Of a DNA stretch of 64,000 nucleotides, positions 17,894 through 44,723 are shown piece after piece (the first letter of the stretch is position 1; every line of letters begins with the position of its first letter). A program made the translations under genes and the position numbers. Under the pieces are notes generated by a model. That model was given only the letters and a program-made list of their open reading frames with translations, made no database searches and had not been told where the DNA came from. This DNA comes from an uncultured Bacilli bacterium. GTDB taxonomy: Bacteria > Bacillota_I > Bacilli_A > RF39 > UBA660. The DNA lies in the NCBI GenBank assembly GCA_944372425.1, contig CALVZC010000006.1, positions 202 through 64,201 on the forward strand, read 5' to 3'.

Positions 17894-18706
17894 ATGAATA
17901 ATTTATTAATTTTAAATAATTTATCAATTGGTTATAAAGATTTAATTATTTATAAAGATTTGTCTTTTAATATTACTGAAAATACAATTACTGCAATATT
18001 ATGTCCAAATAATGGTGGTAAAAGTACATTAATTAGAACATTAAGCGGTATTATTTATGGATTAGATGGAAATATAGTGCTAAATAACGTAAAATTAACT
18101 AGAAGAAATTTTAAAAAGTATATTCGTAATATAGGTGTTGTTTTAGAGGATTTAGATTATCAGTTTATTACAGATAATGTTAAAGAAGAAATAACATTTC
18201 CACTTGTTAATTTAGGATATAAAAAAAATATTATTAATAAGCATATTAAAGATGTTTCTAATATCTGTGAGATTGATAACATATTAAATAAAAAAATAAA
18301 AGTTCTTTCTAATTATGAAAAAATAAAGGTTTTAATTGCTACTAGTATTATTCATTTCCCTAAAATATTACTTTTAGATGATCCTTTTAGATTTATAAAT
18401 ATTAAAGAACAAAAAAAAATCTTGAATATTTTAAATAATATAAAAAATAATTATAATATTTCTATAGTTTTTACTACATCGCAAATTTCTTCAATAATCG
18501 ATTTGGAAAACATTATTGTTTTAGGAAATGGAAAAATTGTTATGCAAGGAAATTATAATGATATTATAAAAAGAGATAATGAGTTAAGTAAATTAGGAAT
18601 TGAAATACCTATTATGATAGATTTATCTTTAAAACTACAATTTTATAATTTATTAGACGATATATATTATAATGTTGAGGGGATGGTTGATAAATTATGG
18701 AAATAA
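17894..18706 (+). CDS. EcfA1-like ABC ATPase-fold protein with degenerate catalytic motifs
   Basis: Conserved locus position and an EcfA-type C-terminus (LSKLGIEIP...MVDKLW). Walker A is CPNNGGKST, signature LSNYE, Walker B LLLDD, and the H-loop is lost. Confidence 0.7.
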   Translation: MNNLLILNNLSIGYKDLIIYKDLSFNITENTITAILCPNNGGKSTLIRTLSGIIYGLDGNIVLNNVKLTRRNFKKYIRNIGVVLEDLDYQFITDNVKEEITFPLVNLGYKKNIINKHIKDVSNICEIDNILNKKIKVLSNYEKIKVLIATSIIHFPKILLLDDPFRFINIKEQKKILNILNNIKNNYNISIVFTTSQISSIIDLENIIVLGNGKIVMQGNYNDIIKRDNELSKLGIEIPIMIDLSLKLQFYNLLDDIYYNVEGMVDKLWK

Positions 18707-19386
18707 TTTTGCGAAATAATTATAATTGTAAAAAGAAAATTAATGTTGAAGAAGGCATTATTATATCTTTACAAGCAAGTAACCTTAATGCTATTGTTAA
18801 TAACTTATTAAATGATTATAAATTTATTAATATTAATAATAATCAAATGTATTTTGTAGGTGAAAATGTATATGAGGAGATAAATTTATATAATAAAATT
18901 TATAATTTAAGTTTAATTAATGATGTTCTTAATATTTTAGGATTAGATGATAGTTTTTTTAATAAAAAAATTGAAAATTTATCTTACACTGAAAAAATAT
19001 ATTTAAATATAATTAGAAATTTATCTTTGGATAATAAAAAAGTTTTATTTTATGATGTTTACAATTATTTGGATTATGCTAATCAGAAAAAAATTAAAAA
19101 TTTACTTTTATATTTAAAAGATAAAAAATATATTATTCTTATAACTAGCAATGATGTAAATGTTTTGTATAAACTTGCGGATTATTCAGTATTATGGAAT
19201 AAAAATAATTTTGAATATTCTAAAACAGATGATTTATATTCTGATGTTGAAAAACTATTAAAGTTTAAGTTAGAAGTACCAATTTTATCTAAAATTACAT
19301 ATAAAGCTCTAAAAGATAAAAATATTAAATTATTTTATAGTAAAGATGTAAGAGATATAATAAAGGATATTTATAAACATGTATAG
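18697..19386 (+). CDS. EcfA2-like protein lacking Walker A, all ATPase motifs degenerate
   Basis: 229 aa. The C-terminal KFKLEVPILSKI segment resembles the EcfA2 tail. Signature-like LSYTEK and Walker-B-like VLFYDV, with no P-loop. Confidence 0.55.
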   Translation: MEIILRNNYNCKKKINVEEGIIISLQASNLNAIVNNLLNDYKFININNNQMYFVGENVYEEINLYNKIYNLSLINDVLNILGLDDSFFNKKIENLSYTEKIYLNIIRNLSLDNKKVLFYDVYNYLDYANQKKIKNLLLYLKDKKYIILITSNDVNVLYKLADYSVLWNKNNFEYSKTDDLYSDVEKLLKFKLEVPILSKITYKALKDKNIKLFYSKDVRDIIKDIYKHV

Positions 19387-19966
19387 TGTGAATTGGAAGA
19401 TTAGAGCTTTAATAACAACTATTCTTATTATAATAACTTCTTTAATAAATAATTATTATTTGTTCTGGTTATTATTATTTTATTTATTATTAATTTCAAT
19501 TGTCGATAGAAATATTAAGTCTTTACTTTTAAATTTTTTAATAGTTTTAATTCTTTTGTTTTGTTTTTATACTTCTAAAATAAGATTGCTACTTAAAATA
19601 ATTTGTATTATAAATATTTTAGTTTTATTTTTCTATTCTTTTACTAAAAAAGAAAGAAAATTCTTAAAATTTAAAATATTATATAAATATAGAAAAAGTT
19701 CTCAAAAAAAATTATTTTATAAATATAACATCGATAAAATAAAAGTTTTCAATAAAGAAAAAGCATTAAAAACATATGATGAAAATGTTAATATAGATAA
19801 TAAAGTAAAAAAAGATATGGATTATTTATATCTTTGCAGTAGAATTAGATTTTATGGTTATAGTAATAGACTAGGTAATTATATGGAAAGAAAAATAGGA
19901 ATATATGATTTTGTTTTTTTAGTAGTGTTTATATTTTTTGTTATTCTTTGTGTTTGTTTATGGTAG
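19379..19966 (+). CDS. Short membrane protein in the EcfT position (possible EcfT relic)
   Basis: 195 aa, hydrophobic N-half and C-end, in the ecfT locus position. SRIRFYGY weakly resembles the EcfT coupling-helix xRG motif. Confidence 0.4.
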   Translation: MYSVNWKIRALITTILIIITSLINNYYLFWLLLFYLLLISIVDRNIKSLLLNFLIVLILLFCFYTSKIRLLLKIICIINILVLFFYSFTKKERKFLKFKILYKYRKSSQKKLFYKYNIDKIKVFNKEKALKTYDENVNIDNKVKKDMDYLYLCSRIRFYGYSNRLGNYMERKIGIYDFVFLVVFIFFVILCVCLW

Positions 19967-20713
19967 GTGATGTTTTTGCGTTATTTAATTTATTTTTCTT
20001 ATGATGGTAGTAATTTTAATGGCTTTCAAAAACAACCAAATAAAAGATGTGTTGAAAATATGCTTGAAGATGCTTTATATAGTATTAATAATTATACAAA
20101 AACAAAAGTTACTGGTGCTGGAAGAACTGATCATGGTGTTCATGCTTTTTGTCAATGTGCACATTTTGATTTAAATATCAATATTACTTTATATAAATTG
20201 AAATGTGCCTTAAATAGTTTATTACCTCCTGATATTCATATTTTTAAAGTTATTCAAGTAGATAGTAATTTTCATGCACGTTATATGGTTAAATATAAAA
20301 CTTATAAATATGTTTTAAATTGTGGCGAGTATAATCCAATAGAAAGAAACTATGTATATCAATATTGTAAAAAATTAGATGTTGATAAAATGAAATTAGC
20401 TATTAAAGATTTTATAGGTGCACATGATTTTAAATGCTTTGTTTCCGATTCTGTTGTGAAAGAAAACTATGTTAGAGAAATCTATGATGCATCTATAGAT
20501 GTTGATAATAATAAAATAGTTTTTAGTTTTACTGCAACTGGTTTTATGAAATATCAAGTTAGAAATATGGTTGGTACACTTGTAAAAATAGGTAATGGGA
20601 AACTTAATGTAGATTTTATTAAAAATGTTTTTTTAGATAATACATTAAAGAAATATATTACTACTATAAAACCAGAGGGACTATATTTAGTAGATATTGA
20701 ATATTTTAATTAA
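19967..20713 (+). CDS. truA: tRNA pseudouridine(38-40) synthase
   Basis: YDGSNFNGFQ and GAGRTDHGVHA motifs. The start may be the ATG at 19970. Confidence 0.93.
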   Translation: MMFLRYLIYFSYDGSNFNGFQKQPNKRCVENMLEDALYSINNYTKTKVTGAGRTDHGVHAFCQCAHFDLNINITLYKLKCALNSLLPPDIHIFKVIQVDSNFHARYMVKYKTYKYVLNCGEYNPIERNYVYQYCKKLDVDKMKLAIKDFIGAHDFKCFVSDSVVKENYVREIYDASIDVDNNKIVFSFTATGFMKYQVRNMVGTLVKIGNGKLNVDFIKNVFLDNTLKKYITTIKPEGLYLVDIEYFN

Positions 20714-25341: not shown

Positions 25342-26646
25342 ATGAAATTACCGACAGTAGCATTGGTAGGTAGACCAAATGTTGGAAAAAGTACAATTTT
25401 TAATAAATTAGTTGGGGAAAAAATATCTATTATTGAAGATACTCCAGGTGTAACTAGAGATAGAATTTATAGTGAAGCTAGTTATAAAAATTATAGATTT
25501 AATGTAATTGATACAGGTGGCATTGATTCTAGTAATGAAGAATTTAATGATAATATAAAAATTCAGGCTGAAATAGCTATTGATGAGGCAGATGTTGTTT
25601 TATTTGTTGTCGATGGAAAAGAAGGATTGACAAGTAATGACTATTTAGTTAGAGATATGTTACGAAATAGCGGAAAAAAAGTTATAGTAGTAATAAATAA
25701 AATCGATAACAAAAAAGCAGAGGAAAATATTTATGATTTTTATGAATTGGGTTTCGATAGTTATATACCAGTAAGTGGTGAACATGGAATAGGTTTTTTT
25801 GAATTATTTGACGAGATTGTTAGTAATTTTTCACCAAACGATAATGTTGTAGAAGATAAAAGATTAAAATTTTCTGTTATTGGAAGACCAAATGTTGGAA
25901 AAAGTAGTTTAATAAACGCTTTATTGAATGAAGAAAGAGTTATTGTAAGTAATGTTGCGGGGACAACAAGAGATGCTATAGATACGATATTGAAGTATAA
26001 TGGTGAAGAATTTATTATAATAGATACAGCCGGAATGAGAAAAAAGGGAAAAGTTTATGAAAATATTGAAAAGTATAGTCTCATGCGAAGCATGAAAGCA
26101 ATTGATAGAAGTGACTTATGTTTGCTGGTAATAAATGCTGAAGAAGGAATAATAGAACATGATAAACATATTGCAGGATATGTTTTAGAAAAAGGTAAAG
26201 GCTTAATAATCGTAGTAAATAAATGGGATAAATTAGAAAATCCTAGTATAAAGGAATACACACAAAAAATAAGAAATGAATTTCAATTCTTAAGTTATGC
26301 ACCGATTGTGTTTGTTTCAGCATTAACTAAAAAAAGAATTCATACGATAATGCCAGAAGTTTTAAAAGTAGGAGAAAATATAAATAGAGAAATAAGTACA
26401 AGCTTATTAAACGATGTAATAAGTGAAGCTTATCTTTTAAATATACCACCATCATATAAAGGAAAAAGACTAAAAATATATTTTACAAATCAATCAGGAA
26501 CAAAACCTCCAAAATTTACCTTTCATGTTAATAACAAAGGACTTGTGCATTTTTCTTATGAAAGATATTTAGAAAATAAATTAAGAGAAAATTTTGAATT
26601 AGAAGGAACACCAATTGTGTTACAATTTAAGAATAGAGGTGAATAA
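25342..26646 (+). CDS. der: Ribosome biogenesis GTPase Der (EngA)
   Basis: Two tandem GTPase domains (GRPNVGKST twice) plus a KH-like C-terminus. Confidence 0.96.
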   Translation: MKLPTVALVGRPNVGKSTIFNKLVGEKISIIEDTPGVTRDRIYSEASYKNYRFNVIDTGGIDSSNEEFNDNIKIQAEIAIDEADVVLFVVDGKEGLTSNDYLVRDMLRNSGKKVIVVINKIDNKKAEENIYDFYELGFDSYIPVSGEHGIGFFELFDEIVSNFSPNDNVVEDKRLKFSVIGRPNVGKSSLINALLNEERVIVSNVAGTTRDAIDTILKYNGEEFIIIDTAGMRKKGKVYENIEKYSLMRSMKAIDRSDLCLLVINAEEGIIEHDKHIAGYVLEKGKGLIIVVNKWDKLENPSIKEYTQKIRNEFQFLSYAPIVFVSALTKKRIHTIMPEVLKVGENINREISTSLLNDVISEAYLLNIPPSYKGKRLKIYFTNQSGTKPPKFTFHVNNKGLVHFSYERYLENKLRENFELEGTPIVLQFKNRGE

Positions 26647-26648
26647 TT

Positions 26649-26822
26649 ATGTGGTGGCCATTTAATAAAGAAACAAAAGAAAATAAAGAAGAAATTTTAA
26701 AAGGTTTATTAAAGGCTCAAGAATTATTAAATCAAAGATTTGCTATGAAACAAATGGATAATGAAACTTATTTAAAAAAAGCAGAAGAATTACGTAAAAA
26801 AATAGAAAAATATCAAAAATAA
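26649..26822 (+). CDS. Hypothetical small helical protein (57 aa)
   Basis: Untracked ORF MWWPFNKETKENKEE...KIEKYQK immediately after der. Coding status unproven. Confidence 0.35.
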   Translation: MWWPFNKETKENKEEILKGLLKAQELLNQRFAMKQMDNETYLKKAEELRKKIEKYQK

Positions 26823-26865
26823 CAAATAAAACGTCTTTACATATAATTATGTAGGAGGTTTTTTT

Positions 26866-27105
26866 ATGTTTGGAGATTCTTTTTTTAAGAAAGTAGAAGA
26901 TAAGACAAAAGTAGATAAAAATACAATTATATCTTTAGCCAATAAATTACAAAATTCTAATATGAAAGATGAAAATGTATTAAGTGAATTAATAGATGAT
27001 ATATCAAATTTAACTGGTAAAAAGGTAAGTGAAGAAAAAAAGAAAAAAATAATAGATACAATTGCCAAAGACAATGTACCAAAAGATATAGACAGTATGT
27101 TATAA
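26866..27105 (+). CDS. SpoVIF-like (stage VI sporulation protein F family) small protein
   Basis: 79 aa. The pattern FFKKVEDKT.V...I..LA..LQNSNMKDEN...LI..IS...GKKVS.E...KII..I matches my memory of B. subtilis YjcC/SpoVIF. Confidence 0.5.
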   Translation: MFGDSFFKKVEDKTKVDKNTIISLANKLQNSNMKDENVLSELIDDISNLTGKKVSEEKKKKIIDTIAKDNVPKDIDSML

Positions 27106-27134
27106 AATAATATTTGTTACTGACATAAAGTAGT

Positions 27135-27163
27135 TTGACAAAATTATTCATACATATTAAAAT
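27135..27163 (+). promoter_or_regulatory. Sigma-A type promoter of cassette 1
   Basis: -35 TTGACA, 17-nt spacer, -10 TAAAAT, 27 nt upstream of the ATG. Confidence 0.6.
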
Positions 27164-27189
27164 TTATTATAGGAGGAATAATAGATAAT

Positions 27190-27705
27190 ATGAGTAACAG
27201 AGATAAAAAAAATATTATGATTGTAGCTCTTTTAATAGCAGTTGTTTTTATGTCAGTAGGATATGCATTATTATCAACAAAATTAGACGTTCAGGGGACT
27301 TCAACAATAGTTGATCCAGTTTGGGATGTAGGAATTATATCAATAAGTGAAAATTCTACAGAAGGCTATGCTAATAGTTTAAATTCAACAGTTATTAATA
27401 AATTTTCAGCAAAATTTAATGTTGAATTGCAAATGCCAAATGATAAAGTCACATATACAATTAATGTCAAAAATGAGGGGACAATTGATGCTAAACTTAA
27501 TTCTATATCGATAATGCCAGAAGATTACAATGAGGGATTTATAAAATATGAAATAGAAGGAATAAAAGCAGGGGAAGTATTATCAGTAGGAGAAAGTAAA
27601 ACTTTCACTTTATCTGTTATGTATAACAGTGATGCAACTGGTCAGCCACAAGAAGAAGACTTAACTAAAGAAATTAGTTTAATACTTGATTATATCCAAA
27701 AATAA
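27190..27705 (+). CDS. Small secreted protein with a TasA/SipW-type signal region (cassette 1 cargo)
   Basis: 171 aa. N-terminal K-rich n-region, h-region, then GYALLSTKLDVQGTSTI. TasA-like PNDKVTYTINVKNEGTIDA strand motif. Confidence 0.75.
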   Translation: MSNRDKKNIMIVALLIAVVFMSVGYALLSTKLDVQGTSTIVDPVWDVGIISISENSTEGYANSLNSTVINKFSAKFNVELQMPNDKVTYTINVKNEGTIDAKLNSISIMPEDYNEGFIKYEIEGIKAGEVLSVGESKTFTLSVMYNSDATGQPQEEDLTKEISLILDYIQK

Positions 27706-27731
27706 GTAATTTATTATAAGTTACTTTTTTT
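27704..27731 (+). terminator. Weak hairpin plus T-run after the cassette 1 cargo gene (possible attenuator)
   Basis: aagtaa/ttactt 6-bp stem, 11-nt loop, T7. Confidence 0.3.
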
Positions 27732-27771
27732 ACTTTATTATTGTTTGTAATAAAAAAATAATGGAGGATTT

Positions 27772-28917
27772 ATGAAAAATAAAAGAATTATACTTTTATA
27801 TTTAATGTTATTTGTATATATTACAATAAACAATTTAATGATGCAGTCTAAATTTGTTTATTATAATTCAGTAATAATTTCTCCATTTTTATTGTTTGTA
27901 ATAACCATAATTGCATATTTCTTATTGCCAACAGCTCAAAAAAGAATTAAATATAAATATGAAAAAAATCAAAACGTTATTATAATAATTTTTTTATATC
28001 TAATTATTTATTTTATTTCTGGATTAATTTTCGGCTATTCATATTCTATATATAGTAAAGACTTATTGACTTTAATAAAAAATATATATAGTGTATCAAT
28101 TATTATAGTTTTAAGTGAATATATAAGAAATAAATTAGTAGTCAATAGTAGTGATAATTATATAAATAATGTACTAATTTCAATAGCTTTAATTTTGATT
28201 ACTTTTAATTTTTCTTATTTTTTTAGAAATATTTATCCTTTTTCAGTAGGATTTAAGTATATAGCATCACAAATTATTCCTAATTTGGTAATAAGCTTTA
28301 CTTTAACTTATCTTTCAAGAAAATGTGGATTGATTTCAACTTTAATTTGTAATTTATCTCTTGGTTTAATTGCAATAATTTTACCAATTTTACCTAATAT
28401 ATCTTGGATAATATTATCAATATTAAAAATAGTCTTAGCAATGTTTCTTTATTTTAACATTAATTATTTTGAATTAATGTATGATAGAAAATATCATCGA
28501 TATTTACTTAATAAGAATACGAAATCAACAACGATTTTGTTTATTATAGTAATAATATTAATTATGTTTATTTTAAAATTTTTTAAATATTATCCAATTT
28601 CTATCTTATCAGATAGTATGAAAAATACTTTTTCTCGTGGTGATATAGCAATTATCGAAAAATTAGATAGAGATTATATTGAAGAAATTCAAGTTAATGA
28701 TATAATTTATTATAAGAAAAATAATAAATTAATAATACATCGTATTGTAAATATTGAAATAATTAACAACAGAATAGTAATAACAACTAAAGGTGATAAT
28801 AATGATGATATTGATCCATGGAAAGTATATGAAGAAGAAATTGTCGGAATAGTTAAAGGGAAAATACCTTTTCTTGGATATCCAGCAGTATGGCTTAACG
28901 AAGCATTTAACGATTAG
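27772..28917 (+). CDS. Polytopic membrane domain fused to an ER/archaeal-type (SipW-like) signal peptidase I
   Basis: 381 aa. About 8 TM segments over the first ~270 aa, then the S26 motifs SDSM (Ser), IHRIV (His rather than Lys), GDNN..D. Confidence 0.8.
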   Translation: MKNKRIILLYLMLFVYITINNLMMQSKFVYYNSVIISPFLLFVITIIAYFLLPTAQKRIKYKYEKNQNVIIIIFLYLIIYFISGLIFGYSYSIYSKDLLTLIKNIYSVSIIIVLSEYIRNKLVVNSSDNYINNVLISIALILITFNFSYFFRNIYPFSVGFKYIASQIIPNLVISFTLTYLSRKCGLISTLICNLSLGLIAIILPILPNISWIILSILKIVLAMFLYFNINYFELMYDRKYHRYLLNKNTKSTTILFIIVIILIMFILKFFKYYPISILSDSMKNTFSRGDIAIIEKLDRDYIEEIQVNDIIYYKKNNKLIIHRIVNIEIINNRIVITTKGDNNDDIDPWKVYEEEIVGIVKGKIPFLGYPAVWLNEAFND

Positions 28918-28925
28918 GAGGAACT

Positions 28926-29999
28926 ATGAAAAATAAAGAGAAAGAAGTTTTAAAAAAGACAGTAATTAGAAGCTCTCTTTTATTAATATCCATTTTTTCT
29001 TTAATATTTGGAATATTAATAACTATTGAAGGAATAACAAACAACAAAGAAGAAAAAGAGGAATTAATTAGTTATGAATCAAACGGTAATATTGATTATC
29101 AGATAAGTTTAAAAGAAAATGATTTTTATAATATTGAAAATACAAATTACAAAAATATAATAGGAAAATATATTGATAATATAAATTTAAGATTTAACTA
29201 TGAATTTTCAGCATCAAATTTATTAAATTCTGAAGTTAAATATTCTTTAAAACTATATTTAGTAAGTGAATATACTGCAAATAATAAAAAAGAAGAAATA
29301 TGGAAACAAGAATATGAACTAATTCCTGAAACAGAAGAATTAAATATTAATAGTGGTATAGTTACGATATCTAAAGATATTACTTTTAATTATGACGAAT
29401 ATAATGAAATAGCTAAGAAGGTAAGATCAGAATCTGGTGTATTAACTGATTCTTACATAAAAGTAGAGTTTATTGTTAATAACAAGTTAGAATTGATAGA
29501 AAAAGATATGAATTTTAACGATAATCATACATTAGTAGCAAAAATATCACTACTAGATAATATTGTAACGTTTGAAAAGATAAATGAATACAATAATAAA
29601 GAAACATTGTATAATACTATTTCTGAAAATGCAAATTATCCATTATTAATAACAGGAATATGTTTATTACTAGTATCATTATTATTATTAATTCAGTCAT
29701 TAAAAATGTTTATAAACACTAGTGCAGAATCAAAATACATAATAGAACAAAATAAAATTTTAAAAAGATATGGTGATGTTATTGCAGAGACATCGACAAA
29801 GCCAAATTTAGAGGATACTAATATAATTGAGATAACTAATTTTATTGATATGATTAATATAGAAGATGAGCTTAGAATACCAATTTTATTTTATGAAAGC
29901 ATAAAAGGAAAAGAATCATGGTTTATTATTATTAACAATAATAAGGCATATAGATATATATTAAAAATAAAATTAAAACGAAAAAGTAATGTAAGTTAG
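28926..29999 (+). CDS. Bitopic membrane protein, cassette 1 third gene (possibly DUF5305-like)
   Basis: 357 aa. TM1 near residue 20, an ~200-aa external domain, TM2 near residue 245, and a ~95-aa cytoplasmic tail. Paralog of 50138..51244. Confidence 0.7.
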   Translation: MKNKEKEVLKKTVIRSSLLLISIFSLIFGILITIEGITNNKEEKEELISYESNGNIDYQISLKENDFYNIENTNYKNIIGKYIDNINLRFNYEFSASNLLNSEVKYSLKLYLVSEYTANNKKEEIWKQEYELIPETEELNINSGIVTISKDITFNYDEYNEIAKKVRSESGVLTDSYIKVEFIVNNKLELIEKDMNFNDNHTLVAKISLLDNIVTFEKINEYNNKETLYNTISENANYPLLITGICLLLVSLLLLIQSLKMFINTSAESKYIIEQNKILKRYGDVIAETSTKPNLEDTNIIEITNFIDMINIEDELRIPILFYESIKGKESWFIIINNNKAYRYILKIKLKRKSNVS

Positions 30000-30244
30000 A
30001 AATATAAAAAGGAAAAAAATAGCGTAAAAAAACAAAAGACAAAACAAATGCTCAAATATAAATATTTTAATTTTGTTTCATATTTTAGTAATAATGAATT
30101 ATTTATTGATAGTTTTTCATTTTATATGGTATTTTCATATTTTTCTTTTTATATATGGAAACCTTAATTTTGATCTTTGTTGTTTTATAATTAAACTAAG
30201 TACGTAAGTAAAAATATATTTAATAATAGGATATTTTGTTTATG

Positions 30245-30275
30245 CCAATTGCAAATATTTGTAATTGGATTTTTT
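30245..30275 (+). terminator. Intrinsic terminator
   Basis: ccaattgcaaa/tttgtaattgg stem (1 mismatch) plus a T-run. Confidence 0.5.
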
Positions 30276-30374
30276 ATAATAATTATTAATGTTTGCAAAA
30301 CACATTTATTTGATTTATTTCTTTTGATTTGATACAATTAACTTGTATTTATATACAATTAGAGGTGATTATTA

Positions 30375-31331
30375 TTGATAGAAGTTAGTATAATAGTTCC
30401 TGTTTATAATAAAGAAAAAGAACTGAGACGTTGTTTGGATTCATTAATAAGTCAAACTCTAAGCAATTTGGAGATTATAGTCATAGATGATAAGAGTACT
30501 GATGATAGTAAAAAAATTATAAAAGAATATCATGAAAAATATCCAAAGAAAGTAATTCCAATGTATAATGATAAAAACGAAGGAATTGGCTTTTGTAGAA
30601 ACAAAGGAATAAAAAAAGCAAAAGGAGAGTATCTTGGTTTTGTAGATGCTGATGATTATGTTGATTTTAAAATGTATGAAAAATATTTAGAATTTGCTAA
30701 AAATAATAGTTTAGAAATTGTAACAGGTTATTATATTAAATGTGGAATGATTAACGAACTATTTAAAAATGAATATTTTTCTATTGGTTCTTTAAAAGAA
30801 AACTCTGAATTATTATTAAAACTTGATTATGGACCTTGTAATAAACTTTTTAAAAAATCATTGATTATAGATAATAATATTTTATTTGAAGAAAAATTAA
30901 AATATGAAGATATGCCTTTTGTATTAAAAAGTCTTAAAAATGCTAATAAAATTGGTCATATAAATAAAGCTTATTATTATTATTATATTCATTCTAATAG
31001 TGAAACAACAACTGTAGATAAACGTGTATTTGATATATTTAAAATAATGAAAATTATAAATAAATATTATAGTGATTATGAAAATTTAGAGTGTCTAGAC
31101 GCATTAAATATTTTACAAATAACAAGATATATGGTACAACAGAGATATCAATGTAATCATAATATTGCAAATAGTTTTATTAATTATGGTTATCAATATT
31201 TGAATGCTATTAATAAAAATTGGAGGAAAAACAGATATTATCTTAAAGAAAATTTTCTTAAAAGAATAATTAAAAATAATAAATTTATTTTAAAAGTATA
31301 CTGTTTTTTTTACAAAATATTTAATAGATAG
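30375..31331 (+). CDS. Family 2 glycosyltransferase
   Basis: TTG start after GAGGTG. SIIVPVYNKEKEL...DD.S.D...DADD motifs. Confidence 0.85.
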   Translation: MIEVSIIVPVYNKEKELRRCLDSLISQTLSNLEIIVIDDKSTDDSKKIIKEYHEKYPKKVIPMYNDKNEGIGFCRNKGIKKAKGEYLGFVDADDYVDFKMYEKYLEFAKNNSLEIVTGYYIKCGMINELFKNEYFSIGSLKENSELLLKLDYGPCNKLFKKSLIIDNNILFEEKLKYEDMPFVLKSLKNANKIGHINKAYYYYYIHSNSETTTVDKRVFDIFKIMKIINKYYSDYENLECLDALNILQITRYMVQQRYQCNHNIANSFINYGYQYLNAINKNWRKNRYYLKENFLKRIIKNNKFILKVYCFFYKIFNR

Positions 31332-31369
31332 TATATTAGAAAAAAGCAAATAGAGGAAAGAGGTAAAAA

Positions 31370-32377
31370 ATGAAAAAAAGTATATTTAAAGATAAAATTT
31401 TATTAATAACAGGTGGAACGGGATCATTTGGTAATGCCGTTTTAAAACGTTTTTTGGATTCTGATTTAAAAGAAATTAGGATATTTTCAAGAGATGAAAA
31501 GAAACAAGAAGATATGCGTATTAAGTATAATAATGAAAAAATTAAATTTTATATTGGTGATGTAAGAGATTATCGAAGCGTTGAAGATGCTATGGATGGT
31601 GTTGATTATATCTTTCATGCTGCAGCTTTAAAACAAGTTCCTTCTTGTGAATTCTTCCCAATACAGGCTGTTGAAACAAATATTCTAGGAACAAATAATG
31701 TTTTAGAAGCAGCAATAAATAAAGGTGTTAAAAAGGTTATTGTATTAAGTACTGATAAGGCTGCATATCCAATTAATGCAATGGGAATGAGTAAAGCTCT
31801 TATGGAAAAGGTTGCAGTTGCTAAAGGAAGAAATTTAAAAGAAAATCAAACTGTTATTTGTAGAACTAGATATGGCAATGTTATGGCTTCACGTGGTAGT
31901 GTAATACCATTATTTTGCTCTCAAATAGAGGAAGGAAAGCCTTTGACAATTACTAATCCAGAAATGACTAGGTTTATGATGACTTTAGAAGATGCTGTTG
32001 ATTTAGTAATATATGCTTTTGAAAATGGAAAACAAGGAGATTTATTTGTTCAAAAAGCTCCTGCTGCAACGATAGATGTTCTGGCTCAGGCAGTAAAAGA
32101 ATTGAAGAAAAGTAATGCTCCTATTAAACATATCGGTTCACGTCATGGAGAAAAACTTTATGAGGTTTTAGTTACTAAAGAAGAAATGGTTAATGCTGAA
32201 GATTTGGGTGATTATTTTAGAATACCTGCTGATAATAGAAATTTAAATTATGCTAAATATGAGAATTTAGGAGATAAAGATTTAGATAAAATAGAAGAGT
32301 ATAATTCACATAATACTAAGAGACTAGATGTAGAAGGAATGAAGAAACTTTTGCTTAAACTAGATTTGTTTAAATAA
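31370..32377 (+). CDS. capE: UDP-GlcNAc 4,6-dehydratase/5-epimerase, CapE/FnlA type
   Basis: ILLITGGTGSFGNAVLKRFLDS..KEIRIFSRDEKKQ and STDKAAYPINAMGMSKA closely match my memory of S. aureus Cap5E. Confidence 0.88.
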   Translation: MKKSIFKDKILLITGGTGSFGNAVLKRFLDSDLKEIRIFSRDEKKQEDMRIKYNNEKIKFYIGDVRDYRSVEDAMDGVDYIFHAAALKQVPSCEFFPIQAVETNILGTNNVLEAAINKGVKKVIVLSTDKAAYPINAMGMSKALMEKVAVAKGRNLKENQTVICRTRYGNVMASRGSVIPLFCSQIEEGKPLTITNPEMTRFMMTLEDAVDLVIYAFENGKQGDLFVQKAPAATIDVLAQAVKELKKSNAPIKHIGSRHGEKLYEVLVTKEEMVNAEDLGDYFRIPADNRNLNYAKYENLGDKDLDKIEEYNSHNTKRLDVEGMKKLLLKLDLFK

Positions 32378-32403
32378 TATCTGTAATTATGTCAGGAGGT
32401 TTC

Positions 32404-33693
32404 ATGAAAAATATTTATAATATTTATTTAATGTTTGGTACTGTTCCAAGTTTATATGCTCAGATGAATATTTATATTGATGATAAACCAAGTGTTGTAT
32501 TTGTTAGGAGTAGTGGCTATTTTAATATTAAAAATAAACCTAGTAATTTAATCTTTTATGATGATTGTATTGGAAATGATTTAGTTTATTTATCTAAAGA
32601 TTATCAAAAAATAGTTGATAGTTTAAATAAAATAATTAGCAAAGATAAAAAAGCAAAATTTATAGTTTATATAGATGATAGTAGAGTCCAATTTTTATTA
32701 AAACCGTTTATTTTAGCAGATTGCTATGACAAAATAGAAAAAATCGTTATGATATCCGAGGGTAATATTACAGAGTATATGTATTCTGATATTGCGGAAA
32801 ATGATTTTGAATTTCAAGAAAAAAGATGGAATTTACTAATAAAAAGCATAAAAGATAATAATCAAGAATCTGAAAAAATGCTAGCAGAAATATCTAATTA
32901 TTGCTTTTATTTGTCTACAATTAACAATAATGAATTACTTTTACCATATTCAGAACTGTTAGAAAATAAAAATGTTTCTAAAGAATATAAGGAAAAAATG
33001 AATCTTAGAAATCTTGATTTACAAATGATGTTAGACAAAGTAGGAAAAAATATTTCTTTTGGAAAAGAAATAGAATCATTTAAGTTTGATGAAAAATCTA
33101 TTGTTATAATTGGTACTTATAATTTTTATGATAATAGTTTTTCAAAAGTCATTTACGAAAACTTAATTGATCAAGTTTTAGTTGATTATCCAGAATATAG
33201 CTTTTATTATAAAGCACATCCGTTGTATCCTGTCGAGAATAATGCCGAACTTTCTAGTTATTTTAAAAGTAGAAAAATTAAAGTTATACCTGAAAAAATT
33301 CCATTAGAAGTTTTATTATATAGGAATAAAAATGTTTCTATAGGAGGTTTTTGTAGTTCTATTCATTCTTTAATATCATTAAATAGAATTAAATTTATGT
33401 TTGGTGAATTTATTGGCTTTTCTAAGCTTTTGAAAAAGAATAATTTATTAAAAGTTAAAGTTTATAATGTTGAAATATCTCAAAAAATTGCTGACGCTTC
33501 TTTAAAAATTTATTATAATAGTCAGTCAAAATTTGGAATAGTTGATTATCATAGTATGCAGATTGAAAATTTAAATAATAAAGTTTATGAATTAACAGAT
33601 AAAATAAATTCCTTAGAAGAAAAATTAAATAAAATTGGTATAAAAAATAATTTAAGAAGAATAAAAAATAAATTTATAAAGAGGAGTAAATAA
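32404..33693 (+). CDS. Putative CMP-ulosonic-acid-dependent glycosyltransferase (sialyl/beta-Kdo-transferase-like) with a C-terminal coiled coil
   Basis: ATG 7 nt after AGGAGG. Has KAHPLYP (HP motif) and SEG (D/E-D/E-G-like). C-terminal heptad segment NLNNKVYELTDKINSLEEKLNKI. Lies in the same locus as a KdsB-type gene. Confidence 0.4.
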   Translation: MKNIYNIYLMFGTVPSLYAQMNIYIDDKPSVVFVRSSGYFNIKNKPSNLIFYDDCIGNDLVYLSKDYQKIVDSLNKIISKDKKAKFIVYIDDSRVQFLLKPFILADCYDKIEKIVMISEGNITEYMYSDIAENDFEFQEKRWNLLIKSIKDNNQESEKMLAEISNYCFYLSTINNNELLLPYSELLENKNVSKEYKEKMNLRNLDLQMMLDKVGKNISFGKEIESFKFDEKSIVIIGTYNFYDNSFSKVIYENLIDQVLVDYPEYSFYYKAHPLYPVENNAELSSYFKSRKIKVIPEKIPLEVLLYRNKNVSIGGFCSSIHSLISLNRIKFMFGEFIGFSKLLKKNNLLKVKVYNVEISQKIADASLKIYYNSQSKFGIVDYHSMQIENLNNKVYELTDKINSLEEKLNKIGIKNNLRRIKNKFIKRSK

Positions 33694-33694
33694 T

Positions 33695-34792
33695 ATGAAT
33701 GTTTTAGTTACTGGTTCAAAAGGGTTTATTGGTAAAAATTTATTAGTATATTTAAGAGAAAAAAAAGATGTTAGAATTTATGAATACGATATAGAAAATA
33801 ATTTTGATGATATTGTAAAAATTATTGATGATATTGATTTTATTTATCATTTTGCTGGTGTAAATAGACCAAAAGATGTTAAAGAGTTTTATGAAGGAAA
33901 TTCTGATTTAACAGTATCTATAGTTGATTTACTTAATAGTAGAAATAAAAATATTCCTTTGGTATATGCTTCTAGTATTCAAGCTGATTTAGATAACGAT
34001 TATGGTAAAAGTAAAAAGAAAGCTGAAGATTATATAAGAAATAATTATTCTAATGGTATTATTTATAGATTTCATAATGTTTTTGGAAAATGGTGCAAGC
34101 CAAATTATAATTCAGTAATAGCAACATTTTGTTATAATATTTCTCACGATTTGGAAATTAACATTACCGATAGAGAAAAAGAAATAGAATTAGTTTATAT
34201 AGATGATATATGTGAAACATTAGTTACACTATTAGATAATTGTGTCGATGTAAGCAAAGATATTAATTATGTATTTCCACGTTATAAAAAAACATTAGGT
34301 GAGTTGGCAGATACATTATATGTATTTAAAGAATGCATGAATTCAATCTATGTACCAAAAACAGGAGATCCTTTTATAAAAAAATTGTTTGCTACTTATG
34401 TTAGCTATGTTGAGCTTCATAACATGGTTACTGATATAAAGACAAATGTAGATAATCGTGGAAGTTTCAGCGAATTAGTTAGAACAAATGATAGTGGCCA
34501 ATTTTCAGTATCTTTTTCAAAACCTGGGATTGTAAGAGGAAATCATTATCACAATACAAAAATGGAAAGATTTATTGTTATAAAAGGAAAAGCTAAAATT
34601 AGTTTTAAGAAAGTTAATAGTGATGAACATATAGAATTTACTGTTAGTGAGGATAAATTGCAAGTTGTTACGATACCTGTTGGTTATACTCATAATATTG
34701 AAAATATTGGGGATAATGAAATGATTTTATTTATATGGTGTAATGAACTTTTTGATCAAAGTCATCCAGATACATATTTTATGGAGGTATAA
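33695..34792 (+). CDS. capF: CapF/FnlB-type bifunctional reductase (SDR N-domain plus cupin C-domain)
   Basis: VTGSKGFIGKNL, GKWCKPNYNSVIATFCYNI, GNHYHNTK...IPVGYTHNIEN and QSHPDTYFMEV match my memory of Cap5F. Confidence 0.88.
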   Translation: MNVLVTGSKGFIGKNLLVYLREKKDVRIYEYDIENNFDDIVKIIDDIDFIYHFAGVNRPKDVKEFYEGNSDLTVSIVDLLNSRNKNIPLVYASSIQADLDNDYGKSKKKAEDYIRNNYSNGIIYRFHNVFGKWCKPNYNSVIATFCYNISHDLEINITDREKEIELVYIDDICETLVTLLDNCVDVSKDINYVFPRYKKTLGELADTLYVFKECMNSIYVPKTGDPFIKKLFATYVSYVELHNMVTDIKTNVDNRGSFSELVRTNDSGQFSVSFSKPGIVRGNHYHNTKMERFIVIKGKAKISFKKVNSDEHIEFTVSEDKLQVVTIPVGYTHNIENIGDNEMILFIWCNELFDQSHPDTYFMEV

Positions 34793-34793
34793 C

Positions 34794-35915
34794 ATGAGTA
34801 AGTTAAAAGTCATGGTAGTTGTTGGAACAAGACCAGAAATAATTAGATTGAGTGAAACTATTAAAGCAATAGATAAATATTTTAATTTAGTTTTAGTCCA
34901 TACTGGGCAAAACTATGATTACACATTAAATGAAGTGTTTTTTGAAGAATTTGGACTAAGAAAGCCTGATTATTATTTATCAACGCCAGGAAAACATTTA
35001 GGAGAAACAGTTGGAAATATTATTTCTAAATCTTATGAAGTAATTAGTAAAGAAAAACCAGATGCTATGTTAGTTTTAGGAGATACTAACAGTTGTTTAG
35101 CTGCTTATTCCGCTAAAAGATTAAAAGTTCCTATTTTTCATATGGAAGCAGGAAATCGTTGTTTTGATTTTAATGTTCCAGAAGAGATTAATAGGAGAGT
35201 AGTAGACCATTTAAGTGATGTCAATCTTGCTTATACAGAAAATGCTAGAAGATATTTGATAAATGAAGGAATTAAAAATGATTTTCTATATGTTACTGGT
35301 TCTCCTATGAAGGAAGTAATTTTTAGCAATATGAAAAATATTGAAAAGTCTGATGTTTTAAAAAAATTAGGTTTAACTAAAAATAAATATTTTGTTGTTA
35401 GTGCTCATCGTGAAGAAAATGTTGATATTAAAGATAATTTTAATAGTTTAATGAATAGTCTTAATAAAGTTGCTGATACTTATAAGATTCCAATTATCTT
35501 TTCAACACATCCAAGAACAGCAAAAAGAATAAAAGAAAGTAATATTGTTTTAAATCCTTTAATAAAAAATATGGAACCATTAGGCTTTTTTGAATATGTA
35601 AAATTACAAATGAATGCTTTTTGTGTTTTGTCAGATAGTGGTACTATACCTGAAGAAAGTGATATTTTGAATTTTCCAGGTGTATCTTTAAGAACAAGTA
35701 CTGAAAGACCAGAAGCACTTGATGCTGGTAGTATAGTTTTAGGTGGGATAAATGAAAAAGATATTTTAAGCTCAATCGAATTAGCAATTAATTCTAGAAA
35801 AGATAGAGAAGAAAATTTAGTTAGAGATTATAAAGATACTAATGTATCATTAAAAGTAGTTAAAATAATTCAAAGTTATTATAATATTGTAAATATTAGA
35901 ACTTGGAAAAAATAA
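34794..35915 (+). CDS. capG: UDP-N-acetylglucosamine 2-epimerase (non-hydrolysing), CapG/FnlC type
   Basis: MSKLKVMVVVGTRPEIIRLS start. The track's 34743 start lies inside capF. Confidence 0.9.
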   Translation: MSKLKVMVVVGTRPEIIRLSETIKAIDKYFNLVLVHTGQNYDYTLNEVFFEEFGLRKPDYYLSTPGKHLGETVGNIISKSYEVISKEKPDAMLVLGDTNSCLAAYSAKRLKVPIFHMEAGNRCFDFNVPEEINRRVVDHLSDVNLAYTENARRYLINEGIKNDFLYVTGSPMKEVIFSNMKNIEKSDVLKKLGLTKNKYFVVSAHREENVDIKDNFNSLMNSLNKVADTYKIPIIFSTHPRTAKRIKESNIVLNPLIKNMEPLGFFEYVKLQMNAFCVLSDSGTIPEESDILNFPGVSLRTSTERPEALDAGSIVLGGINEKDILSSIELAINSRKDREENLVRDYKDTNVSLKVVKIIQSYYNIVNIRTWKK

Positions 35916-35933
35916 TTATAGTGAGGTGTTATT

Positions 35934-36668
35934 ATGAAGGTTATAGGAGTAATTCCAGCAAGATATAAATCAAGTAGATTAGAGGGTAAACCTTTAAAAG
36001 ATATTTGTGGAAAGCCAATGATTTGGTGGGTTTACCAAAAAGTTTTAAAAGTAAAGGAAATTGATGAAGTTTATGTAGCAACTGATGACGAAAGAATAAT
36101 GAACACTTGCAAAGAGTTAAATATAAATGCTATTATGACAAGAGACGATCATAAAATGATGCTTGAAAGAGTATGGGAAGTATCTGAAAAAATTCCTGGA
36201 GATATTTATGTTTCTGTAGCAGGTGATGAACCTTTGATTGAACCAGAAAACATTGCAAAAGTAATTAAACCTTTATTAAAAGATAAAAATTTACTTGTTT
36301 CAAACTTGAAGACTAAAATAACTAATCCAGTAGATTTAGTAAATTGGACAACAATGAAGGTTGTTTGTAATGAGCAAAATGATATTATCCTTGCATCACG
36401 TTCTCCAATCCCATATCCAAAGGCAACAACAGAAGTTATTTATTACAAACATATGGGAACTTATGCTTTAAGAAAAGAAGCTTTAAATTTTTTCTATAAT
36501 AAGGAAAAAGGAAATATTGAATCAATTGAAGACTTTGATTTATTAAGATTTTTAGAAAATCATATTACTGTTAGAGCTGTCGAAGTTAAATCACAAACAG
36601 TATCTGTTGATACTCCAAAAGATTTAGAAAGAGTCAGAGATATTATAAATAAAAACATGAATAGGTGA
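35934..36668 (+). CDS. kdsB: KdsB-family cytidylyltransferase (CMP-Kdo synthetase-like)
   Basis: IPARYKSSRLEGKPLKDICGKPMI, GDEPLIEP and VDTPKDLERVR align with E. coli KdsB as I recall it. The H.SGT.R segment is altered to HKMMLER. Confidence 0.65.
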   Translation: MKVIGVIPARYKSSRLEGKPLKDICGKPMIWWVYQKVLKVKEIDEVYVATDDERIMNTCKELNINAIMTRDDHKMMLERVWEVSEKIPGDIYVSVAGDEPLIEPENIAKVIKPLLKDKNLLVSNLKTKITNPVDLVNWTTMKVVCNEQNDIILASRSPIPYPKATTEVIYYKHMGTYALRKEALNFFYNKEKGNIESIEDFDLLRFLENHITVRAVEVKSQTVSVDTPKDLERVRDIINKNMNR

Positions 36669-36672
36669 TGTT

Positions 36673-39600
36673 ATGAAAGAAAAAATATTACTTTTAACTG
36701 ATATACCACCATGTACAAATTATACTGGTGGAATAATGCTTTCACAATTAGTTAGATTTTTAATAGAAGAAAAAATAGAAGTTGAATATTATTCTATTGA
36801 AGATCCGTATTTGAATGCTAAAATAGATACAACTGTAAGTGATGAGGTAAAGTTAATTAGAGTTAATAGGCCTAATGAGATTATTTCTAAAAAGAATACA
36901 TACAACAATTTTAGTAAAAAATTAAAAGCAGTTATAAAATCCGTAAAAAATTATATTAGTAGTAATAGTTTTTCTAAGATTTGGATTGTAATTCAAGGGG
37001 AGGTTATGACTGAAATAGCATACCATATTATGAATGATAAAAATTATAAATATATTGTTCAAATATGGGATCCAATAGAATGGTGGACTAAGGAGCATAA
37101 ATTCGATAAAGAAAGAGAAAAAAAAGTATTAAATAAGCATGACGAAGTGTTAAAAAATGCTGAATGTTGTATTACTACTTCAGAAGCAATGACTGAATAT
37201 TTTAATAAAAAATTAGGGATAAATTGTATAGAGGTTATGCCACCATTAAAAAAAGTTAATTTTGTATCATCTAAAACAAAAAAAGAAAAAGATAAATTTG
37301 TTATTGCTATGAGTGGACAAGTATATTCGCAAGATGAATTAGAAGCTTTATTTCTAGCTTTAGATAGTATGTCATGGAAGATTGGAGATAAGAACATCTA
37401 TTTTGAGCATTATGGTAGTTGGTATAATAGTCAAGATTTTATTAATGAAAGAGAGAAATATAAAGATAGAATAATTTGTCATGGATTTGTTCATCAGTCT
37501 ATGTTATTAAGTTATTTGAGCAATGCAGATTTGTTATATTGCCCATACTTTTTTTCTAAGGATAAAGCGTTAAAAAAAGTTTCAGAATTATCATTTCCAA
37601 GTAAATTAATTACTTATTTATCTTTAGATGTTCCAGTTTTGATGCATGGACCAAATTATGCAAGTCCAGTAAAATTTCTAGAAAAGTATAACGCTGGATA
37701 TGTAATAACTAGTGATAATCCTAATGATATAGCTAAAAAATTAACTAATATAGCTAGTTTAAATTCAAAAGAAATCTTAATTAATGCTAGAAAAGTTTTT
37801 GAATCTAATTTTACTTATGAAGTAGTAAAAAATAACTTTTTTAAAGCATTGAATATTGGCTATGATAATGAGAAAAAGTTACATATTTTAGAAGTAAATA
37901 ATGTTGATTTATCTGGTAGAAGATTTAATGGTTACGATTTGTCAGAAGAAATTAATACAACGACAAATAATCAAGCAAGACAAATAGTAGTATATAAATC
38001 TTCAGATAATGATGATGTTAAAACTTTTTATCCAAATAATAGGGGTATATCTTTAGATTGGTCTTTAATTGAGAATGAACAAAAAGAACTGTCTGTTCAT
38101 TCTCAATTGTCACTAACTTCTAATGTTCTAAAAAATAATGATTATTTTATAAATGCTGATTTAGTACATTACCATTTGATTCATAATACAAAATTATCTT
38201 TGTATCAAATGATAGAACTATGTTCTAATAAGCCATCTGTATTTACTTTTCATGATCAATGGAATTTTACCGGTAGATGTGTTAATCCACAAGAATGTGA
38301 AAAATGGAAAACAGGGTGTCACAATTGCCAATATTTAAATACATTATTTCCTTTTTTAGAAGATAATTGTCATTCGCTATGGAAATTAAAAAAATATGTA
38401 TATGAGAACTTAGATGTTGACATTGTAGTAAGCACTAAGTTTATGAAAGAAATGATTGAAACTTCACCTTTGACTAAGTGTTTTAAACATGTTCATGTTA
38501 TCCCATTTGGAATAGATTTGGAAAAATTTAAAAAAAAACTAACAAAAGAAGAAGCAAGAAAAAAATTAAAATTACCTGTTGATGATGTTGTAATTTTTTT
38601 CCGTTCACAAATGGCTGCTAAAGGAACAGAATATATAGTTGATGCGATGAAACAATTAAAAACTAATAAAAAGATAACATTATTAAGTTGTAGTGAAATT
38701 GGAAATTTAGACTCTTTAAAAGACAAATATAATGTCGTTGATTTAGGAAATATCGACAATGATAAAATGTTTCTTGCATACGATGCTTGTGATTTCTTTC
38801 TAATGCCATCACGAGGTGAAAGTTTTGGACTTATGGCAATAGAAGCAATGGCTTTTTCTAAAACTGTTGTTGTATTTAATAATACATCTTTACCAGAGGT
38901 TACTTTTGCCCCTGATTGTGGTGTTTTAGTTGAAAATAAAAACTCTAAAAAGTTAATGGAAGCTATAAAGATGTTAATTGATAATCCAGACGAATGTGAA
39001 AGACGTGGAAATTTAGGTAGAAAATTAGCAGAAGAACATTATGATATTAAGCTTTATAATGAACGCATTAAAAAAATGTATGATGAAGCCTATAAACGCC
39101 AGAAAGATAAACCTGTTAAGATACAAGATATGAAAATTGATTATAATTTAATTGATGTTAAAGTTTTAGCATATAAATTAAAAAAGATCTATAAAAATAT
39201 GTATCATATTGATATGAAAGATGATATATTTAAAAATATTAAGGAAATAAGTTTACCAAATTATAAAATAGATTATTCAAATATAAATGTTCAAAATCTT
39301 ATATATCAATTTAACTTAAGTATATATAAAAAGTATTTAGAAATCGAAGCAAGTAAAACTAATAAATATACAAAAGGCTTTTTCAACATGTTAAGGTATG
39401 ATAGAGAGCATCTTTTAGTAGCAATAGATAATAGATTGAAAAAAATTCCAGTTTTGTATCCAATTATAAAAATAATTGCTAATGTTTTGTACTTTGTTTA
39501 TAGAATATTTAGGAGATTAAAGCGTATTCTATTTAATGACTATGCAAATAAAGCTAAAAAAGATATTGAAGAATTAAATAAAGTTATAGATAATCTAAGT

Positions 39601-40692: not shown

Positions 40693-40750
40693 CTTCTTTT
40701 TTATTTGCTCATTTATAACTAACGTGATAAAATTTGTTTAGGGTGTTAGA

Positions 40751-43344: not shown

Positions 43345-43373
43345 AAAATAATACTTTTTGGTATTATTTTTTT
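43345..43373. terminator. Bidirectional terminator between the convergent YfhO-family and FemAB-family genes
   Basis: aaaataatac/gtattatttt stem flanked by an A-run and a T-run. Confidence 0.6.
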
Positions 43374-44701: not shown

Positions 44702-44723
44702 AAAAAAAGATGTTTCCATCTTT
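44702..44723 (-). terminator. Intrinsic terminator (minus strand)
   Basis: aaagatg/catcttt stem, 4-nt loop, U7 on the minus strand. Confidence 0.6.

Follow-up and report, generated by a model that had tools for sequence, protein, structure and literature searches.

The question posed by this locus is whether three adjacent genes of an uncultured Bacilli bacterium, found in a 64,000-nucleotide stretch of contig CALVZC010000006.1 (the whole of which we call the window), encode a system for building extracellular fibres and, if so, whether that system is of a new kind. The genes (cassette 1) are co-directional open reading frames (ORFs) on the + strand at 27190-29999, separated by gaps of 66 bp and 8 bp, and they lie exactly where the preliminary description, made from the letters of the sequence, had placed three tightly spaced genes for proteins of 171, 381 and 357 amino acids (aa). 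They encode a predicted secreted beta-sandwich protein, hereafter the cargo (171 aa, 27190-27705, +), a fusion of a polytopic membrane domain with a signal peptidase (381 aa, 27772-28917, +) and a DUF5305 protein (357 aa, 28926-29999, +). The cassette is a new and divergent gut-bacterial member of the AbpX/TasA-type fibre systems and not a new kind of system, and we consider it probable that it works as a minimal secreted-fibre (biomatrix or pilus-like) module of that type.

The preliminary description knew of no characterised system with this architecture, but the combination is described, in a January 2026 preprint, for loci of AbpX. This protein of Pyrodictium abyssi, with homologues in Thermoproteota, Bacillota and Chloroflexota, is a donor-strand fibre subunit of the TasA superfamily that has been shown to polymerise and is accompanied by minor/tip subunits with the same donor strand, and its loci in archaea and Bacillota contain a dedicated signal peptidase I (SPase I) with ten transmembrane (TM) helices and a DUF5305 'SPase I accessory protein' (bioRxiv 10.64898/2026.01.04.697558). 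A peptidase/DUF5305 pair, TafD and TafG, is also found in the haloarchaeal Tafi pilus system, in which TafD is genetically required for processing of the pilin TafA and for pilus formation (PMC11821415, PMC12337348). The possibility raised at the outset that the three families already belong to a described system is therefore borne out in large part, through the AbpX loci and the TafD/TafG pair.

In the neighbourhood census of the trio that the preliminary description had proposed, 13 independent loci were found to contain the set, and in each the genes for the fusion peptidase and DUF5305 are accompanied by between one and three genes whose products carry the N-terminal cargo module. The census was built on contigs encoding homologues, the loci counted being the window (twice), L001, L003-L007, L009, L011 and L013-L016, and a narrower peptidase alignment gave 6 genome loci. 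The order cargo, peptidase, DUF5305 is kept in 12 of the 13 loci, the DUF5305 gene lies directly 3' of the peptidase gene in 12 of them, and peptidase identity ranges across the loci from 82% down to 27%. This arrangement of cargo, peptidase and DUF5305 genes is far beyond chance. Several loci encode a small subunit (170-205 aa) together with larger proteins (270-828 aa) bearing the same module, and the fusion protein as such is represented by 92 full-length clusters of ~380 aa. The nearest genome is a 1.31-Mb circular metagenome-assembled genome (MAG) labelled 'uncultured Bacilli bacterium', the others being labelled Erysipelotrichaceae or Bacilli and coming from gut samples.

The window itself holds a second copy of the set. 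Cassette 2 consists of a 196-aa cargo paralogue (cargo 2; 48332-48922, +; 27% identity to cargo 1, E 5e-13) with the predicted cleavage region G-F-A↓A-F-S-T-T-L-S-I-D-G, a 377-aa fusion peptidase (48997-50130, +; 30% identity over the full length, E 4e-45) and a 368-aa DUF5305 paralogue (50138-51244, +; 28% identity, E 1e-16). Because these in-window paralogues are only 27-30% identical the set must have been kept together over a long time, and by this divergence cassette 2 appears to be an ancient copy of the whole cassette. Further 3' is the gene for a 460-aa protein (51604-52986, +) that matches the cargo profile at positions 8-52 only; it has the signal, the cleavage site (G-Y-G↓A-F-N-A-E-L-S-I-S-G) and the N-terminal strand in common with the cargos, while its remainder is an unrelated domain for which no Pfam family was found. 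It is a candidate for the tip or a minor subunit in cassette 2, and analogous large cargo genes are present in L007, L011, L014 and L015.

The strongest link between the window and AbpX is one of gene context and runs through L009, the locus on which the link to the AbpX-locus peptidases rests. The peptidase of L009 (P0090) aligns to that of the window with 27% identity at 99% coverage (E 3e-20) and retains E116, R119 and P205. The genes run from a histidine kinase and a response regulator through the peptidase to two genes for proteins of 218 and 239 aa and then DUF5305, and these two small proteins match P. abyssi AbpX by BLAST at 1e-7 and 2e-8. The 239-aa protein also passes the SipW-cognate signal model TIGR04088 (22.1 bits, cutoff 19) and is matched by the window cargo profile at ~1e-8 to 1e-10. 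Since a homologue of the window peptidase stands beside AbpX-like proteins in L009, the window cassette is a system of the same kind with a divergent cargo subfamily. The cargo itself resembles AbpX at the profile level only. Using the AbpX sequence from the preprint supplement, checked against PDB 9sj2/9rhp, hhalign aligned the cargo profile with signal peptide included colinearly to AbpX over 143 columns (probability 78-85%, P ~1e-5), and the mature regions aligned to a four-sequence AbpX-like alignment over 114 columns (probability 73%, P 3e-5).

In composition the window cassettes share with AbpX loci a small acidic secreted beta-sandwich subunit whose mature N-terminus would be an amphipathic donor strand, an adjacent dedicated SPase I of TIGR02228 type with many TM helices, a two-TM DUF5305 protein, and extra genes with the donor-strand module, which in AbpX loci are minor or tip subunits. 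Mature proteins of the AbpX family are acidic (isoelectric point (pI) ~4, ~15% Asp+Glu), as are mature cargo 1 (pI 4.3, 15.2% Asp+Glu) and cargo 2 (pI 4.26, 12.4%). The differences are that the window peptidase has nine TM helices and a short C-terminal helix in place of the ten helices reported for the AbpX-locus enzyme, that the neighbourhood of cassette 1 contains neither an LPXTG or SLH anchor nor sortase, histidine kinase or cyclic di-GMP genes, and that the cassette comes from a gut-type Bacilli MAG lineage of low GC and not from a thermophile.

The catalytic part of the fusion peptidase is readily assigned. An anchor TM segment (aa 251-271) and the catalytic domain occupy 28522-28917 (+), and the C-terminus matches the archaeal/endoplasmic reticulum (ER)-type signal peptidase I model TIGR02228 (S26B) at 76.4 bits (cutoff 51.85) and Pfam Peptidase_S26 at 30 bits (cutoff 22.9). 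The motifs SDSM (280-283), IHRIV (322-326) and GDNN (341-344) are present, and S282, H323, D342 and D348 are invariant in 29 homologues. A profile of these homologues matches human SEC11A/C at E 1e-21 compared with E 3e-3 for E. coli LepB, the four invariant residues align to the SEC11A/C motifs SGSMEP, VHRV and KGDNN..D, and Foldseek places the peptidase model on SEC11A at E 9e-5. The four residues correspond to those of Sec11, which works by Ser/His catalysis without a catalytic Lys, together with two Asp of the GDNN...D motif. The description of the C-terminal ~110 aa as an S26 peptidase of the Ser/His (ER/archaeal, SipW) type agrees with all of this evidence. Against the SipW equivalog NF046067 the window peptidase scores 57.7 bits, far under the cutoff of 190.

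The N-terminal part (aa 1-250; 27772-28521, +) is a polytopic domain with 8 predicted TM helices. In the AlphaFold2 (AF2) model of the peptidase (predicted local distance difference test (pLDDT) 87.5) these helices span residues 4-246 and are followed by a ninth, anchor helix (251-267), a beta-rich catalytic domain and a short C-terminal helix, and from the positive-inside loops we infer that the N-terminus is inside and the catalytic domain outside. Foldseek matched the polytopic domain to four chains of the Rce1 CAAX protease 4cad over 260-269 columns, essentially the whole Rce1 chain, with template modelling scores of 0.41-0.50 (target-length normalised), E ~7e-3 and probability 1.0, and Rce1 was the sole polytopic protein among the Foldseek matches of the peptidase model. 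The domain has invariant E116, R119 and P205 and near-invariant G84, N104, Y180, I206 and P208, with the conserved sites falling on a Glu-x-x-Arg of TM4 and an L-P-I-x-P loop, and no conserved His. The CPBP family to which Rce1 belongs is defined by the motifs E-E-x-x-x-R, F-x-x-x-H and H-x-x-x-N/D, and the first of these sits on TM4 of the Rce1 structure, the place that corresponds to E116 and R119. Shared with Rce1/CPBP are therefore the 8-TM fold and an invariant Glu and Arg on TM4, whereas the Glu-Arg spacing is E-x-x-R and not E-E-x-x-x-R, the conserved His/Asn of F-x-x-x-H and H-x-x-x-N are absent and the window domain is fused to a signal peptidase. None of 29 peptidase members matched Pfam CPBP (PF02517) at E<=10, and a search of PDB chain sequences with the polytopic-domain profile gave nothing meaningful. 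Membership of the CPBP proteases was rejected on these grounds, there being no PF02517 match and no CPBP motifs beyond E116 and R119, with no invariant His.

On the model the polytopic domain is best read as a scaffold of Rce1-like fold rather than a protease, and a second proteolytic activity is unlikely given that the domain lacks the catalytic histidines. Searched as a profile, the domain recovered at least 28 proteins, and 27 of the 28 listed matches are 341-386 aa, which is the length of the whole fusion; the lone shorter match, on a 4.5-kb contig, has 153 aa and is probably fragmentary. Among the matches listed the domain thus occurs only fused to S26. An Rce1-like fold for the membrane domain of a signal peptidase is apparently new, as a structural lead from the model, and the text of the AbpX preprint makes no mention of Rce1, CAAX or CPBP.

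For the third gene the preliminary description had suggested DUF5305 and two TM segments, and both hold. The protein matches Pfam DUF5305 (PF17231) at 53.4 bits (cutoff 29) over the full profile (1-217), and its hydrophobic segments at 16-34 and 238-256 give a layout of TM, ~200-aa extracytoplasmic domain, TM and ~100-aa cytoplasmic tail. A DUF5305 search of PDB sequences returned nothing meaningful. By analogy with the AbpX and Tafi loci we regard it as a putative signal-peptidase accessory subunit.

The cargo (cargo 1) is identified as a secreted beta-sandwich from its ORF, its AF2 model, the family consensus and a profile match to AbpX. It has a signal peptide with a predicted cleavage G-Y-A↓L-L-S-T after residue 26 followed by an amphipathic N-terminal strand, residues 24-40 reading GYALLSTKLDVQGTSTI, and a core motif P83-N-D-K-V-T-Y-T-I-N-V-K-N-E-G-T-I-D-A, so that the signal-region and TasA-like strand motifs are both present as first quoted. 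The AF2 model (pLDDT 81) has an N-terminal helix, drawn as a single helix over residues 3-36, and 8 strands forming a beta-sandwich. A specific assignment to TasA (Peptidase_M73) did not hold in profile searches. Cargo 2 scores 17.2 bits, under the cutoff of 22.5, cargo 1 has no match at E<=1, and membership of this family was rejected since both lie below the Pfam threshold. In profile alignments of 32-58 columns the similarity to TasA is confined to a P-G-D...N-x-G strand motif, and the same motif accounts for weak Pfam matches of cargo 1 to DUF11 (20.6 bits, cutoff 24.6) and CARDB (15.6 bits, cutoff 22.7), both of which are below threshold. Three N-x-S/T sequons, given as NST, NSL and NST, also lie at residues 55-67 of cargo 1.

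Beyond the cassettes the cargo belongs to a large family. An exhaustive search with the cargo profile gave 9,476 clusters at 50% identity with E<=1e-3, 5,062 with E<=1e-10 and 328 with E<=1e-30, a minority of the matches, among the weaker ones, being giant DUF11-repeat proteins that match the core motif only. Where a source is recorded the family is mostly from gut metagenome samples. In the top 150 members the module is mostly at the extreme N-terminus, and many members have long C-terminal extensions (LRR_5/BspA, Flg_new, DUF6273). No Pfam or NCBIfam model covers the cargo module, and a very large, uncatalogued family that is often fused to adhesin domains is apparently new. Directly 5' of the peptidase in L013 (4176-4988) and L016 (4080-4982) are genes for 270-300-aa proteins in which the cargo signal and strand precede a CBM_2/CBM49-like carbohydrate-binding domain, which suggests that some fibres carry a glycan-binding subunit.

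The best-conserved N-terminal feature of the family is the motif around the cleavage site. Over 144 members the consensus begins M-x-V-G(90%)-Y(88%)-A(90%)↓A-[F 49%/L 47%]-S-[T/S/Q]-x-L(90%) and continues x-I(83%)-x-G(88%)-T ... W(93%)-D-V, with Phe and Leu together making up 96% at mature position 2. Judged by its sequence pattern this motif combines a -3/-1 signal-peptidase site with an alternating amphipathic strand directly after it. It has parallels in the cleavage of TasA at T-W-A↓A-F-N-D, a mature end confirmed by PDB 8aur (the TasA sequence used being identical to 8aur over mature residues 28-261), and in that of AbpX at T-Y-A↓Q-W-S-E-T-L-S-L.

The logic of a Bacillus fibre operon is also recognisable in the cassette, as the preliminary description had pointed out when it likened the trio to tapA-sipW-tasA with a different composition, and its functional reading, in which a cargo with a TasA-like N-terminus is paired with its own SipW/ER-type peptidase, is supported. 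Shared with B. subtilis tapA-sipW-tasA and B. cereus sipW-calY are a dedicated ER-type Ser/His peptidase beside its fibre-subunit substrate, the cleavage context G-x-aromatic-A↓x-aromatic/Leu-S/N and the P-G-D...N-x-G strand motif. Unlike the B. subtilis operon cassette 1 has no TapA, its peptidase has an 8-TM N-terminal domain that SipW lacks, its third gene is DUF5305, and cargo 1 is ~90 residues shorter than mature TasA and fails Peptidase_M73. As described, the Bacillus operon has SipW and TapA only and no DUF5305 (bioRxiv 10.64898/2026.01.04.697558). With the Tafi pilus (tafA-G) the cassette shares a signal peptidase I and a DUF5305 protein beside donor-strand pilins; the Tafi pilins however use the twin-arginine translocation pathway, unlike the Sec export proposed for the cargo, TafD has 4 TM helices and an N-terminal catalytic domain where the window enzyme has 8 TM, an anchor and a C-terminal catalytic domain, and the Tafi locus comprises seven genes including a regulator compared with the three of cassette 1.

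As a mechanism we propose that the 171-aa cargo precursor would be exported by Sec and cut after G-Y-A (Ala26) by the adjacent ER/archaeal-type signal peptidase I, probably together with DUF5305 as accessory subunit. The cut would free the amphipathic N-terminal strand x-[F/L]-S-T-x-L-x-I-x-G-T, which would then enter the beta-sandwich of the next subunit (donor-strand complementation) and so give rise to an extracellular fibre, to be capped or decorated by strand-only proteins, the 460-aa protein among them. The 8-TM Rce1-like domain would most likely recognise or position the unusual signal and donor-strand segment of the cargo in the membrane. An aromatic P2' residue is reported to make a poor substrate for E. 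coli LepB (PMC10269814), and a dedicated SipW/ER-type enzyme would make sense for that reason; this rationale fits cargo 2 and half of the family, the P2' residue of cargo 1 being Leu. A bolder version, which we hold to be doubtful, is that the polytopic domain is a functional second site, either a receptor that selects G-Y-A↓x-F/L cargo and passes the donor strand on or a His-independent signal-peptide hydrolase, so that the fusion and DUF5305 together would make up a self-contained 'cleave-and-assemble' platform serving a very large, uncatalogued fibre/adhesin family of gut Bacilli.

A number of results weigh against the proposal of a fibre module. Pairwise BLAST of cargo 1 or cargo 2 against AbpX was not significant, and the mature cargo profile against AbpX alone scored 16.9 (z ~2.8), which is not significant against shuffles that averaged 11.5 +/- 1.9 and reached a maximum of 17.6. 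The SipW-dependent signal model TIGR04088 likewise found no match at E<=1 in cargo 1, cargo 2 or the 460-aa protein, and as noted cargo 1 has no Peptidase_M73 match. Against the PDB the full-length cargo model with its signal helix gave weak generic Ig-like Foldseek matches only (best E 4e-3), with no TasA or AbpX chain among the best 50 matches listed, although the AbpX chains 9sj2 and 9rhp are present in the PDB sequence set, and a cargo-profile search of PDB sequences gave nothing meaningful. At the strand itself, AbpX has an acidic residue at mature position 4 that is involved in Ca2+-mediated strand complementation, whereas in 84% of the cargo family this position is T/S/Q and none of the five commonest residues there is acidic; at position 2, where AbpX has an aromatic residue, cargo 1 has Leu (cargo 2 has Phe). 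Ca2+-triggered assembly is therefore not predicted, and a donor strand without an acidic position 4 is apparently a new point. Lastly, two loci have cargo-module proteins away from any peptidase/DUF5305 pair. The 674-aa P0187 (L017, 1665-3689), which has BspA-type LRR_5 repeats and adjoins gyrB, has no peptidase or DUF5305 gene near it on its 7.4-kb contig, and the 874-aa P0126 with a Flg_new repeat (L018, 1-8625; ena:ERZ14864795 NODE_3330) has none within 6 kb. Cargo-module proteins are hence not always cassette-encoded and may be processed in trans.

Several of these points would be expected if the cargo were a monomeric secreted or surface beta-sandwich, a CARDB/DUF11-like adhesin or wall module with a specialised peptidase for an atypical signal and no strand donation. 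The weak Pfam matches (DUF11, DUF7507, CARDB) fall on the core motif, the structural matches are generic, adhesin-type C-terminal domains are common in the family and the acidic position is absent. A conserved amphipathic strand directly after the cleavage site would however have no obvious role in a monomer, the usual pairing within loci of one small and at least one large protein that share the N-terminal module only is the pattern of major plus minor/tip subunits, and the chain of homology leads to AbpX, for which polymerisation is established; we therefore judge a monomeric cargo to be rather unlikely. That the fusion proteins are simply the housekeeping signal peptidases of a reduced ~1.3 Mb genome, with the adjacency to cargo incidental or regulatory, would suit the small size of the closest MAG, the fact that no P-type signal peptidase was seen in the 64-kb window and the cargo-module proteins encoded far from such peptidases, which imply an enzyme working in trans on several substrates. 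It is hard to reconcile with the strict presence of DUF5305 and cargo-module genes beside the peptidase in 13/13 loci at 27-82% identity, with two diverged copies in one window each having its own cargo, with a polytopic domain that is never without S26 among the matches listed or with the dedicated enzymes SipW and TafD as precedents, and seems to us improbable. It is more improbable still that the cargo is type IV pilin-like, its hydrophobic helix being kept in a pilus core through Tad/type IV pilus assembly in place of signal peptidase I cleavage. The top Foldseek match is indeed an archaeal AAP type IV pilin (8q30, E 4e-3; 8fk7 is also listed), AF2 draws residues 3-36 as one helix and P0126 lies 2-5 kb 3' of Tad-like genes (a ParA/MipZ-like gene, a T2SSE ATPase and two T2SSF), but such matches are weak (template modelling score 0.23) and are expected of any signal helix with a beta-sandwich. 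Where the hydrophobic segment begins, the N-termini inspected show no conserved Gly(-1)/Glu(+5) motif of class III, conservation being highest at the C-terminal end of the segment, and neither the surroundings of the two cassettes (14-53 kb of the window) nor the 12 further peptidase loci contain prepilin peptidase, ATPase or platform genes. The pilin interpretation was rejected for this lack of machinery genes and the wrong conservation pattern. The L018 arrangement is a single instance and may be fortuitous, or it may indicate that another route is open to some members of the family.

If the fibre-module reading is true, low-GC gut Bacilli with very small genomes carry compact three- to four-gene TasA/AbpX-type fibre modules, with the same N-terminal module attached to many adhesin-like proteins, and a system studied in hyperthermophilic and halophilic archaea and in Bacillus extends to uncultured gut commensals. 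The cassette also offers a compact gene set for heterologous reconstitution, and the Rce1-like fold a testable lead on substrate recognition by dedicated signal peptidases.

Upstream of the cargo gene a sigma-70/SigA-like promoter candidate, TTGACA-17-TAAAAT, was found at 27135-27163 (+), an intergenic site with 11/12 matches lying 27 bp 5' of the ATG, and inspection of the sequence gave a ribosome-binding site, tAGGAGGaa, at 27172-27180 (+), ~9 bp before the ATG at 27190. The preliminary description had called this a good sigma-A promoter, and the site with its AGGAGG and ATG is there. The DNA around cassette 1 is however only ~22% GC, and promoter-like sites in the AT-rich stretch showed no excess (38 observed compared with 40.9 in shuffles); because they are no commoner than in shuffles the promoter is plausible as a candidate only. 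On the 3' side of cassette 1 is a terminator-like hairpin at 30245-30268 (+) with a T-run to 30277, and for such sites 26600-30450 contained 1 where shuffles would give 0.2.

The 5' neighbours of cassette 1 are der (25342-26646) and then a SpoVIF-family gene (26866-27105), which scores 62 bits in Pfam (cutoff 27) and 62.5 bits for the NCBIfam equivalog, below its cutoff of 130. A gene of a sporulation family thus stands directly 5' of the cassette though the closest genome of the lineage is only 1.31 Mb. Between the two cassettes, 30375-43339 (+) is a cell-envelope glycopolymer cluster with two GT2 genes, a Polysacc_synt_2 (CapE/FnlA-like) dehydratase, Polysacc_synt_C, a UDP-GlcNAc 2-epimerase, a cytidylyltransferase, a 1004-aa GT4/GT1 protein and an 862-aa YfhO protein, and after it comes a FemAB-family gene at 43364-44638 (-). 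Elsewhere in the window, GC content falls to 17.8% at 18001-20000 compared with ~25% overall, in a stretch that takes in the gene for an ABC ATPase (17894-18706) and two ORFs with no Pfam family (18697-19386, 19379-19966). An 81-aa ORF at 44722-44967 (-) has Pro/Asn-rich ends around a coiled-coil-like RRVNDRIDNLERQLRRLERRVNTLE segment.

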